The translations under genes were made by a program, and so were the position numbers. The notes beneath the pieces are model-generated. The model ran no database searches. It was given only the letters and a program-made list of their open reading frames with translations, and was not told the origin of the DNA. Shown here piece after piece: positions 16,686-55,720 of a stretch of DNA of 64,000 nt; the stretch's first letter is position 1, and the number at the start of each line of letters is the position of its first letter. Source of the stretch: Anolis carolinensis (Eukaryota); NCBI RefSeq assembly GCF_035594765.1, contig NC_085842.1:242679747-242743746 (forward strand). Direction: 5' to 3'.

Positions 16686-17084
16686 GGTCTTGGTAGTTCT
16701 CCAACTTGAGAAATAGCTAGAGGGATTTATCCAAGTCCCTGTTCCCAAGGGATTACTCAAACAAGGTCGCCAGGAGGTGGGTGCCTTCAGGATGCATTCT
16801 GATGCATGCAAGTAACAATTTATATACTTCATATAAGAAATTAATACAGCACACAGTAAGGAAGATAAAGTTATACAGAAATCATTAAATTCATACAATT
16901 TATTAAAGGGTTAGACACAATACAGTTCAAAGGATACAGCTGCTGCTGGGTCCATTCCCAATATTCTAAATCTTCAGAATTTTACAAATCTGTACCTCCA
17001 AAAAAGATTTTAAATAAAAAGGTAAAAACATACATTTATTTGTGGTCTCTTAGTATAAATACTTTGGGGAGGGGGGCTACTGTG

Positions 17085-17997
17085 TGTGATGACTCATGGG
17101 CCATGTAGTCCCGTTCCTAGTGCTGTTGTGAATGATGAAGAGGAAAACTTGGGTTTTCCACCATTTCAGCCAGAAAAGGAACTATCCCAGCCAGGAATTG
17201 AGCCTTTGCACCTGCAGGAGGCTTGTCTTCCAGAAATCTGCCAAACAAGCCCTGAGTCGAGTTCTCCCCCTTTTTCGCGCCGTAATTATTATCTCCAGCA
17301 AAAAGGAGTGCAACAAGCTAATCGCAGGAGTTTGAGAATTGCAGCAAAGCATTCAGATGATTAAGCCTGCTGCCATGAGAAATTTTAGGGAGTCATACAT
17401 CTGGACACAGAGATTGACTTTCGTTTCTGATTCCCCAGAGAAGTGTTCTCTGGTGGGAAAACGAGGCCTATTTAGGTTCCTTGCTCCCGAAGGAATCTTG
17501 CGGAGTCAATTCGTCAGCTACCGGAGCAGCGTGTGTGGACAGCTACTCCTGTTTTCAAGCCTTTGTTCCTGTTCCAAGCCTTCGTTCTCAGCCTTGTTTT
17601 CTCCCCGGATCTTGCCTTGTTTTCCGGACCTCGCCAAGTAATTACCACGGATCTTGTTCTTGCTCCTCGTTTCCTTGTTGCCTTGAATCAAGCTTTGTGT
17701 GCCAAGAATCAAGTTATTTCCTAACCTTGCTCAAGTTCATGGACTAAAGGACCTTGTCATCTCCCCTCACTTGCTTGGCAAGTGAGTGTTTCGGTTATTG
17801 GATTACAACTTTGGACCTTAATATTTCATATTGGACATTGCTTTTTTGGACTAATTTTGACCTTTCCTGAAAGGTCTACTTCTGGACTATTTCCTATACT
17901 TGTTTTTATTAACTTTATATATTTCCTTAATAAAGATATTAGATAGATTCTGGCCTCTGTGTATGGTTATTGGTGCTCTGCAGCCTGGGTCGTGACA
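17085..17997 (+). mobile_element. Solo LTR, Gypsy-like, 913 bp
   Basis: Termini TGTGATGAC and GTCGTGACA; 5-bp TSD ctgtg at 17080-17084 and 17998-18002; AATAAA at 17929. Confidence 0.9.
17086..17364 (+). other. Intact 92-codon frame in LTR U3 (acidic/Pro-rich, ending RRSLRIA); putative C-terminal tail of a retrotransposon ORF
   Basis: Ungapped homology to the same-position frame in LTR 19619-20500. Confidence 0.6.
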
Positions 17998-19618
17998 CTG
18001 TGGCTCGATAATACTTGGTCATCTGAGTCAAAAGATGGACAAAACTCCGATGCCCCTTTTGAAATAATCTTTCTTAAACCTGTGAAAGAAGGGAAAGGGA
18101 AAGCTGTGATCACCAAACTGTGACTAATATTGGAATTTAGCAAGAAATCAGCTCCAGTTTCAGAAGATTGTTCCATAAGTTTGGGAACCCTTTGCTACTA
18201 AAGCTCTTGACTAATGACTTCAGGAAGTATACATGGCAATATTTTCCTCTTTCCTTCCATCTTTTCTTTCAGAGCTTGCTTTATGCAGAAGATAATGAGC
18301 ATCCAGCATCAGGCAGGCATATAACAGACTTTCCTGTATCACATACTCAACAGTGCTCAGCTATTCTTCAGAGTCCCAAGAAGCAGTGGAACTACTATTC
18401 TAATAACATGGAACTCAGAAAGTTTACTTCTAATCTACTGAATAGCAAGGCCAGTTGTAGTTCCAGAAACCAATGCCTGGGAGAAATAGTCTAAAAAAGC
18501 AACTTTTATAAATTCTGGTTATAGTTTATGCCACAGCAGAGACCAGAACTGGTGAACTAAATAAAACTGAAGGAAATAAAATAAACAGTGAAGTTGTAAG
18601 GAGATCAACTAGTTTGCGTATATATATCAGGAAGAAAATCTTGTACAATTTTAAAATTGTTGTTCACACATGAGTAGGCTGTAGGTGATTCCCCCCACTG
18701 TTCAACATACAAAAATACCAATATTTCCATATCTATTTCTAGAGTGATTTTAGTCTTGTTCCATGTGATGCCAAGAATATTCCTGGAAAAAAATGGACTC
18801 TGAGTGTATTGAAGTTACCCATCTGTATGTATATTATTGGCCAGAATAGGGGTGGTGAATGTGTGTCCATTTGTTGTATGTTGTCTCTAGAGCCATTTTC
18901 CCTCCTCACAATTCAATGTTTCTAAACTGTTACTATCTCAATGATTTGCACCCAGACTCAATGGAAGCAGGAACAGTTTAGGTTTGTGGAAGCGTGGGGC
19001 AGGTATTTAATTGTTCCACTGCTTAGTCATTTCCATGTAACTTCACACCCACATATCAGTTCTATGGTTGATTTGTCTTTTCTTTTATTTGTTTTACATT
19101 GAAAGCAATTTAATGTCTGGAAATATCTCTTGCTGAGGAATGTACCATAAAGTGTAAATCAAACTGCTATCTCACACACATGCACACCCCTACCTTTTCC
19201 CACAGGTGACCTTAGTGAGACCGCTTTTTAGAATATGAAGCTTTGAGTGGGGGAATCTGAGTAGATTTTGTGACAATTTTTTGGCATGGTTTCACAATGA
19301 TCTGAAAAACATCTGAAAAACTTCTGGAACTGTATTTATGTGATCTATGAGTGGTGCTCATGTCTCAAGCACACAGGTTGTTCTGAAAATTATGGGTCTG
19401 ATACATAGGCGGATGTTTTTCAAAAAGCACACCACCTTAAAACACTCCTCATAAACTAAATCTCTACTGTGGGGGAGGGGGAGTGGGCAACAAAAATGGC
19501 CCTGGATTTTTTTTACATCCAATCCAATTCGCTGCCATACAGGAATACACAATCAAAATACTCCCAACAGATGGCAATTAGCCTCTGTTAAAAAAATTCC
19601 AGGAAGGAATAAGAAAGT

Positions 19619-20500
19619 TGTAACACCCCTAAGCACTGGAAACCAACACGGAGGCCAATAAACAATCTAATATCTTTATTAAAGCAATAAAAGTTCTAAA
19701 CAAAAATAATCAGAGTATATAGTCCAGCAGTTGACCTTTTAGAGAAGATCAAAATTAGTCCAATAAAATAAAGTTATATGTCCAATATTAGAGTCCAAAG
19801 TCTATAATCCAAATAACCGAAACACACACAAACTCTTTGGAAGTTTGAGTGGAGAAAGAGCAAGGTTTCACAGGGAGATTCTTGAAGTAAAGTCCAGAAC
19901 AAGGATTCAAGGCTAGGCAAGGTATTTCGTGGTGGATCTGAAAGGCAGTCCAAACTTGACAAGGAGTGGAACGCAACTCCCAGTCTACTCGTGAGTAAGC
20001 GCACCGGAGGGCCGCTTGGAAGCTCAGGAACAAGAGACGATGTTCTTCTATGAATAGTCATGTTGACACCACAATAGGGAAAGCTCAGTGCAGAACTTTT
20101 ATGGAAGTTCAAGAGCTCCTCCCAAGCAGGTGTTTGACTCCCCAAATCTTCCCAGAGAACGGAGCTGTTTCAACATCGTACCAGATGCCTGCCTCCCTGA
20201 AACTTCCCAAGGGAAACGGTTTAGTCACAATCGTCTCTCTCCGCTAATCTCGCGCTTCATCTTAAAAACTGCTTTTGGGAGCGATGTGTTTTGAGAAAAG
20301 CCTTCCTATCAAACACCAAGCTTTCCGGAGAAACAGGCTCTGTTTCAAGGGTGTCCGTAATTGGCTCTGGCACGAAAATGTCAACAGGAGACATCTGGAA
20401 TGGAACAGAATCTTGTTGAGATGGAAAAAAGTCCAAATCCTCTTCAGTTTGATCTATGATGATTGCGGGGTCATGGGGCAAAGGTCCCTGAGACATCACA
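19619..20500 (-). mobile_element. Solo LTR, Gypsy-like, 882 bp, distantly related to 17085-17997
   Basis: TG...CA termini; TSD aaagt at 19614-19618 and 20501-20505; shared tgtgatg start and aataaagatattagat...tggcctc near the 3' end. Confidence 0.9.
20221..20499 (-). other. 92-codon frame in LTR U3 with one TGA (probably CGA by CpG decay), ending R(R)SARLAERDDCD
   Basis: Manual translation past the TGA at 20257-20259 to the TAA at 20221-20223. Confidence 0.6.
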
Positions 20501-20652
20501 AAAGTCTGTGTTTCTTACAGGCTCCAAGCAGTACTTGGGATCCCTACTCCAGCACACACACAAACATATTTGGGGGACACCTCCCATTCTGGACTATGCA
20601 CACCCACATGCACATACATACACATCATTTTAGAGTCAAAGAGGTCTTAAAG

Positions 20653-48211: not shown

Positions 48212-48600
48212 TAGGCAGTCCCCAAGTTACAAATAAGATAGAGTCTATAGAATTGTTCTTAAGCTGAATTTGTTTGTAAGTCATAACAGGTACATTTTNN
48301 NNNNNNNNNNNNNNNNNNNNNNNNNNNNNNNNNNNNNNNNNNNNNNNNNNNNNNNNNNNNNNNNNNNNNNNNNNNNNNNNNNNNNNNNNNNNNNNNNNNN
48401 NNNNNNNNNNNNNNNNNNNNNNNNNNNNNNNNNNNNNNNNNNNNNNNNNNNNNNNNNNNNNTAGGGAAGGGTTAACACCCCTTTGGTGTTTGTTTTGCTG
48501 TGTGTGCTCCTGTTCAGAAGATTTCACCTCACTTTCTGTCCCTATGATAATTGGATTTGGAAAAAAATAGTTTATTGTGGAAACAAGAATTGGTGAGAAT
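48212..48600. mobile_element. Tigger/MER44-like MITE spanning an assembly gap
   Basis: Left TIR aggcagtccccaagttac; collinear with 56406-56863 on both sides of the gap. Confidence 0.8.
48299..48461. other. Assembly gap (163 N)
   Basis: Run of n. Confidence 1.
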
Positions 48601-55564: not shown

Positions 55565-55720
55565 NNNNNNNNNNNNNNNNNNNNNNNNNNNNNNNNNNNN
55601 NNNNNNNNNNNNNNNNNNNNNNNNNNNNNNNNNNNNNNNNNNNNNNNNNNNNNNNNNNNNNNNNNNNNNNNNNNNNNNNNNNNNNNNNNNNNNNNNNNNN
55701 NNNNNNNNNNNNNNNNNNNN
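55565..55720. other. Assembly gap (156 N)
   Basis: Run of n. Confidence 1.

Follow-up and report, generated by a model that had tools for sequence, protein, structure and literature searches.

We analyzed a 64,000-nucleotide stretch of the Anolis carolinensis genome (contig NC_085842.1 of assembly GCF_035594765.1, forward-strand positions 242,679,747 to 242,743,746), here called the window, which holds two solo long terminal repeats (LTRs) of a young and an older retrotransposon family, LTR A and LTR B. Both are leftovers of recombination. Each carries in its U3 region a 92-codon frame that forms the C-terminal end of pol in complete elements, where it falls within U3 of the 3′ LTR; the encoded tail leads from an acidic stretch to a basic end with the pattern RRSxR[LI], known from HMGN proteins. 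The features, in window positions, are as follows.

17085..17997, + strand: solo LTR A, young family, 913 nt, TG..CA ends
17080..17084, + strand, second copy at 17998-18002: target-site duplication CTGTG of LTR A, perfect 5 bp
17086..17364, + strand: LTR A frame, the U3-encoded final 92 pol codons plus TAA, comprising an acidic Pro-rich linker, S-x-x-F-x-R[RK], and RRSLRI
17323..17340, + strand: HMGN-like motif RRSLRI of LTR A
17469..17475, + strand: TATA-like box of LTR A (TATATAG in sister subfamilies)
17500..17509, + strand: leader-complementary 10 nt of LTR A, the predicted self-priming partner and beginning of R
17929..17934, + strand: AATAAA polyadenylation signal of LTR A
19619..20500, − strand: solo LTR B, older family, 882 nt, TG..CA ends
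20501..20505, + strand, second copy at 19614-19618: target-site duplication AAAGT of LTR B, perfect 5 bp
20221..20499, − strand: LTR B frame, the U3-encoded pol tail, 92 codons plus TAA, with TGA at codon 81
20245..20262, − strand: motif site R*SARL of LTR B, with the TGA at 20259-20257
20063..20070, − strand: site complementary to the family B leader, where R is predicted to start
19675..19680, − strand: AATAAA polyadenylation signal of LTR B

An earlier note on this DNA had described a 92-codon frame shared by the two solo LTRs, and its coordinates, translation, and identity count agree with ours. Both frames start at LTR base 2 and reach a TAA 279 nt on. Aligned without gaps, the two peptides are identical at 22 of 92 positions with a BLOSUM62 score of 70, values of which neither was attained in any of 20,000 shuffles. 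In the remaining five frames, the scores were −45 to −4, with 2 to 9 stops each. As the note had also stated, DNA similarity lies mainly near the LTR ends, chiefly in a 193-nt block of 78% identity near the 3′ end, and in one quarter of the ungapped frame just 13 of 69 bases are identical. The exact match in length is a partial coincidence: both frames do run 279 nt to the TAA, but the tails of sister subfamilies have 82, 85, 87, 92, or 97 codons, and a MAFFT alignment of A and B inserts offsetting gaps. The TGA in LTR B is not fixed in its family. Among 31 family B copies, codon 81 reads CGA in 13, AGA in 10, TGA in 5, and CAA in 2, with 1 unread; TGA and CAA are confined to copies of the CGA type, and the TGA copies are scattered over a star-like tree with no grouping. 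This pattern fits the proposed decay of a CpG.

Six paired copies of family A, each 6.3 kb long, allowed the frame to be placed in complete elements. Their LTRs are identical in five copies and show a single difference in the sixth, and pol is open for 1256 codons from stop to stop in four. In all six, the integrase frame stays open through the polypurine tract (PPT; …GLEEGDS/VMTHGP…) to the TAA at LTR base 280, and by tblastn the tail of LTR A is 98.9% identical to pol residues 1165-1256. Pfam domains in this pol follow the order protease (PR), reverse transcriptase (RT), RNase H (RH), integrase (IN), SH3, and chromodomain. The chromodomain (PF00385, above cut-off) occupies pol residues 1090-1137 at the integrase C terminus, upstream of the PPT, and is followed by 27 codons, the PPT, the LTR frame, and the TAA. 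In alignment with HP1, its F, W, and F stand opposite Y, W, and F, positions that we take to be the aromatics of the methyl-lysine cage. For the 92-residue tail, Pfam returned no family at E values up to 1, and thus no HMGN homology.

The same arrangement recurs throughout the genome. A pattern for the PPT/LTR junction gave 4414 matches against 1 control match. In the first 30 junctions listed, chosen by position and not by score, the chromodomain reads into the LTR in frame in 30 of 30 and the tail ends in RRSxRI in 29; in a second sample of 30 junctions, obtained with a snake query, the motif is present in 23 and broken or altered in 7. The first 100 junction copies listed are dispersed over 33 Mb of a single contig without clustering. 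These results bear out the suggestion in the note of an integrase C-terminal tail. Family B consists almost entirely of solo LTRs. Two strict pattern searches for its junctions found none, and less stringent ones matched at 22 and 4 places, which held two distinct B-type junctions: in one, the second half of the chromodomain is in frame with the tail, and in the other a frameshift lies between them. We also observed a family B copy with leader (G000:C3:130471400-130472700) in which an internal deletion has fused the gag start with the 3′ end of an LTR, and a further divergent family (G000:C12:10792000-10799800) whose tail motif reads RKSA*L.

In both families, the leader downstream of the 5′ LTR is complementary to a site ∼30 nt past the TATA-like box, at LTR position 416 in A and at ∼430 in B. 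The complement in A spans 10 nt, a length reached by 8 of 2000 shuffles, and leader and LTR complement covary between A and B through compensatory change. Complementarity between the leader and the start of R marks the self-priming of Tf1/sushi elements (passages of PMC6317226), and self-priming is accordingly predicted for both families. With R starting at this site, the entire frame would belong to U3 and precede the point from which a solo LTR is transcribed, so that the two LTRs of the window would not express the tail. By their sequence features, families A and B are Tf1/sushi-type Ty3/gypsy chromoviruses, and like Sushi-ichi and Amn-san (named in passages of PMC6317226) they combine the order PR-RT-RH-IN-chromodomain, predicted self-priming, and TG..CA LTRs. 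In a tree of 29 of 31 rows (two were dropped for short overlap, and no named Sushi-ichi or Amn sequence was among them), the Anolis pols join the squamate elements in one group (96/94), surrounded by chromodomain pols of amphibians and fish.

The earlier note had allowed for a small separate open reading frame (ORF) beginning at the ATG of codon 2, which is present in nearly all copies. We rejected this candidate because the frame continues pol without a break and precedes both the predicted TATA box and the predicted start site. The ATG is no evidence of a start, as V-M derives from the integrase attachment end TGTGATG; it is part of the end of the LTR, and fish relatives have V-T as well as V-M at this place. 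That the frame is a separate ORF, or else a side effect, without function, of promoter constraints acting on U3, thus strikes us as extremely improbable, also because the motif codons vary synonymously, each invariant motif residue being encoded by two to four codons.

Selection on the tail was assessed in seven pairs of natural, unbroken copies of different subfamilies, the pairs sharing members. In the pol frame, the ratio of nonsynonymous to synonymous divergence (dN/dS) was 0.19 to 0.39, with bootstrap intervals below 1 in 7/7 pairs, against 0.71 to 2.88 in the two shifted sense frames; the antisense frame that shares third positions also gave low values, as expected. Gaps in the tail DNA measure only 15 or 21 nt, so that all its indels are in frame, while the 450 nt past the stop contain many gaps of 1-2 nt. 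At the five fixed motif codons, nine disjoint pairs showed 28.5 synonymous versus 2.5 replacement differences, a pN/pS ratio of 0.03; elsewhere in the tail, pN/pS was 0.26 in the S-x-x-F-x-R[RK] block, 0.53 in the middle, and 0.71 in the spacer. The tail, which the note had called selected, is therefore under purifying selection on the protein, strongest at the motif. Its synonymous divergence exceeds that of the adjacent chromodomain region in 7/7 pairs, which suggests faster change of U3 or exchange between subfamilies.

The motif site is kept in 104 of 116 copies. Within these 104, the first R is present in 104, S in 101, the anchor R in 102, and I/L in 103; the second R is present in 93, and the remainder have a stop (5), W (3), Q (2), or K (1). 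Its likeness to HMGN, pointed out in the earlier note, is well founded in these conserved arginines and in the commonest Anolis form, RRSARIAA, which equals the yeast Dot5 sequence RRSARIAT at 7/8 positions, as well as in an RRSARL in the lizard Podarcis. The HMGN sequence RRSARLSA and the Dsup sequence RRSSRLTS grip the nucleosome acidic patch via arginine anchors, as seen by cryo-electron microscopy (passages of PMC12487698), and Dot5 binds the patch experimentally (passages of PMC13347269). We therefore think it probable that RRSxR[LI] acts as an arginine-anchor tether to the H2A-H2B acidic patch behind an intact chromodomain. In a complex prediction of a sister subfamily's tail with H2A-H2B of this genome, the score was 0.67, against 0.00 for the best of three controls. 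Three runs gave 0.67, 0.02, and 0.74, with a contact agreement of at least 7% and a partner predicted local distance difference test (pLDDT) score of at least 42. All confident predicted contacts join the motif to the acidic-patch surface, in a Dsup-like orientation (passages of PMC12487698): the first R would contact H2B Q47, S would contact H2A E61/E64, and the anchor R would contact H2A E61 and H2B E105/H109.

Several points weigh against this reading. One of the three runs scored 0.02. The mark used for such predictions is reached by 51/78 solved but also by 2/108 mismatched microbial pairs, with peptides outside this calibration, and the peptide used was the last 40 residues of a sister subfamily (RRSARI), not the RRSLRI of the window. 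The prediction may reproduce the known structures of HMGN, Dsup, or LANA complexes, and since similar complexes have already been solved, it shows likeness and not binding; AlphaFold 3 is reported to place HMGN2 in the wrong orientation (passages of PMC12487698). The last 26 residues are modeled by AlphaFold2 as a helix, unlike the short motif segment of HMGN, though in a model that misfolds the chromodomain. RRSxR[LI] is absent from the snakes (QRSMKHL, QQSMRLL), the amphisbaenian Rhineura (KRGRP), and the fish relatives, so that the motif is not required across the clade, and in-frame read-through in family B rests on one of two junctions. Finally, the two conserved basic clusters, F-x-R[RK] and RRSxR, lie ∼13 residues apart, with pN/pS of 0.26 and 0.03, a spacing that would suit a different function.

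That function, our main alternative, is a bipartite nuclear localization signal (NLS) for import of the integration complex. A C-terminal NLS exists in Ty1 integrase and has been proposed for the Beetle chromoviruses (passages of PMC3605345), and every squamate tail seen ends in a basic stretch, even without RRSxRL. At two arginine positions, however, Lys replaces Arg in just 1/104 copies each, and S and I/L vary no more than the arginines do, while classical importin-alpha sites require Lys, not S or L. As the six-residue pattern also recurs in Podarcis and a frog, we consider a mere import signal unlikely.

Less plausible is a basic helix over the last 26 residues, with nonspecific binding to DNA or RNA or packing on the intasome, the HMGN likeness being incidental. 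AlphaFold2 models residues 145-170 as a helix (pLDDT 82-89), and relatives have other basic ends, such as the RGRP stretches of fish and amphisbaenian elements. Against such a helix, the spacer between the basic sites is nearly unconstrained (pN/pS 0.71), and constraint is concentrated in the five residues of the fixed pattern, as expected of a linear motif that docks on the surface of a protein. The same model bears on the earlier description of the tail as a disordered acidic linker plus a basic motif: the succession of acidic and basic parts holds, but only the linker looks disordered (pLDDT <50), the end being predicted as a helix, in a model that also misfolds the chromodomain (mean pLDDT 55).

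A further proposal starts from the RRS itself, which fits the consensus of basophilic kinases of the PKA or Aurora type and might be such a site, or another host-factor docking motif, regulating integrase. S is present in 101/104 copies with RR before it, but this would leave the fixed downstream R and I/L unexplained, and we regard it as very unlikely to be the whole account. The kinase and tether readings are compatible, since the serine of the HMGN motif is a phospho-switch on the nucleosome-binding motif (passages of PMC12487698).

As an acidic-patch tether, the tail would remain on mature integrase, and its ∼60-residue acidic Pro-rich part would serve as a flexible linker from which RRSxR[LI] could tie the integrase complex to the patch, as in HMGN, Dsup, and Dot5. 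The chromodomain would hold a methyl-lysine histone tail and the motif the nucleosome face, a two-point attachment that may help chromatin capture or site choice. A foamy virus Gag tether can shape integration sites (passages of PMC9040877 and PMC12125541), and a single R/K change in the integrase tail of Copia redirects integration (passages of PMC11735389).

We also looked for such tails in other species. Protein searches with a tail profile gave clear matches only to Anolis proteins, HMMER against 1.84 billion representatives returned mostly chromodomains, and the motif was found in 3 of 152 chromodomain proteins examined, all three being Anolis proteins added from the tail-profile search. 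Searches anchored on the chromodomain showed that pols of the squamate branch do not stop at GD[SG]V but extend into long acidic tails whose ends are basic. In Podarcis muralis, the pol end (…ELVAPRRSARLKAR…) contains PRRSARLK in 5/6 chromodomain-bearing cluster members; in the frog Leptobrachium, outside the squamate branch, it (…LRRSPRLQARSGP) contains RRSPRL in 4/6. Both motifs terminate tails that cannot be aligned. These two are the only ones with the motif among 215 tails from outside Anolis, a set of gene models that is biased as a sample, and both have it within the last 30 residues (shuffle P of 0.0065). In these species, the position of the junction at the LTR edge is predicted from the shared GGG-x-V pattern. 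Tetrapod chromoviruses may have built, on more than one occasion, a two-handed integrase reader, with a methyl-lysine chromodomain and an HMGN-type arginine anchor on an acidic tether, an idea that we put forward tentatively and hold to be somewhat less than an even chance.

Fish Tf1/sushi relatives likewise extend ∼20 codons beyond a PPT-encoded GGG-x-V, but their tails are short, whereas the acidic tails of squamate elements reach ∼85-115 residues past the junction. The fish pols often have RGRP-rich basic stretches right before the PPT and a conserved R-x-x-SP[DE][YF] end just inside the presumed LTR.

Pol also runs into the 3′ LTR in plant CRM and Bingo (Beta) chromoviruses (passages of PMC3059260 and PMC3605345). 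The analogy with CRM, drawn in the earlier note, holds for group A in this respect. It fails in another: the CR motif of that group replaces the chromodomain, whereas in Anolis the chromodomain sits upstream of the PPT with its cage intact, and the LTR module is therefore an addition. HMGN, Dsup, and Dot5 share the RRSxR[LI] pattern with Anolis, where it is LTR-encoded at the C terminus of a retrotransposon polyprotein and its binding is predicted. Prototype foamy virus Gag, LANA of Kaposi's sarcoma-associated herpesvirus, and IE1 of human cytomegalovirus are viral proteins that attach to the acidic patch through an arginine anchor; they use other sequences and are Gag or episome-maintenance proteins, whereas the Anolis motif is on the end of integrase beside a chromodomain.

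Entry of pol into the LTR is thus known in plants, while an HMGN-like motif in a retrotransposon appears to be unreported: no report was found among the top-ranked papers of the literature searched. In the same literature, functional HMGN-like motifs outside HMGN were limited to Dsup and Dot5, and passages of PMC12487698 refer to an "untapped realm". If the tether is real, no HMGN-like motif would have been known before in a transposon and no acidic-patch anchor on the tail of an integrase, and elements of this type would have a means of holding chromosomes that is new to the literature. Vertebrate chromoviruses are the ancestors of RTL1/PEG10-type genes, and the motif is a six-residue, strongly selected candidate for how they find chromatin, in a very young and abundant family. 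An anchor written in the LTR would outpace the rest of pol in divergence, and subfamilies could swap it. A vertebrate U3 that doubles as selected coding sequence also bears on how LTR divergence is read.

The closest named proteins are Anolis carolinensis UniRef models called "Gypsy retrotransposon integrase-like protein 1", in which chromodomain and tail are present; these names are automatic, and the entries make no mention of the LTR overlap or the motif. Several Anolis gene models contain the LTR peptide (e.g., A0A803T411) or end in it because U3 encodes the pol tail. One model of an ATP13A5-like ATPase ends in the full tail, probably an artifact of gene prediction since the RefSeq model of this gene ends differently, the alternative being exonization.

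Among LTR A relatives, 40/40 scored matches were ∼99.6-100% identical (40 scored of 5052 candidates), and the other full-length matches to LTR B were 93-96% identical (40 scored of 3081 candidates). Fourteen of the 40 family B matches lie on the small contigs C9-C15, and all 40 family A matches on C1-C5, a contrast that may be an artifact of which candidates were scored. LTRs of this group are spaced a few kb apart in the window (17085-20500) and at 3 of 29 other family B loci, which may reflect a preference for inserting nearby or no more than the large number of copies. Runs of N occur at window positions 48299-48461 and 55565-55720, outside the LTR region.

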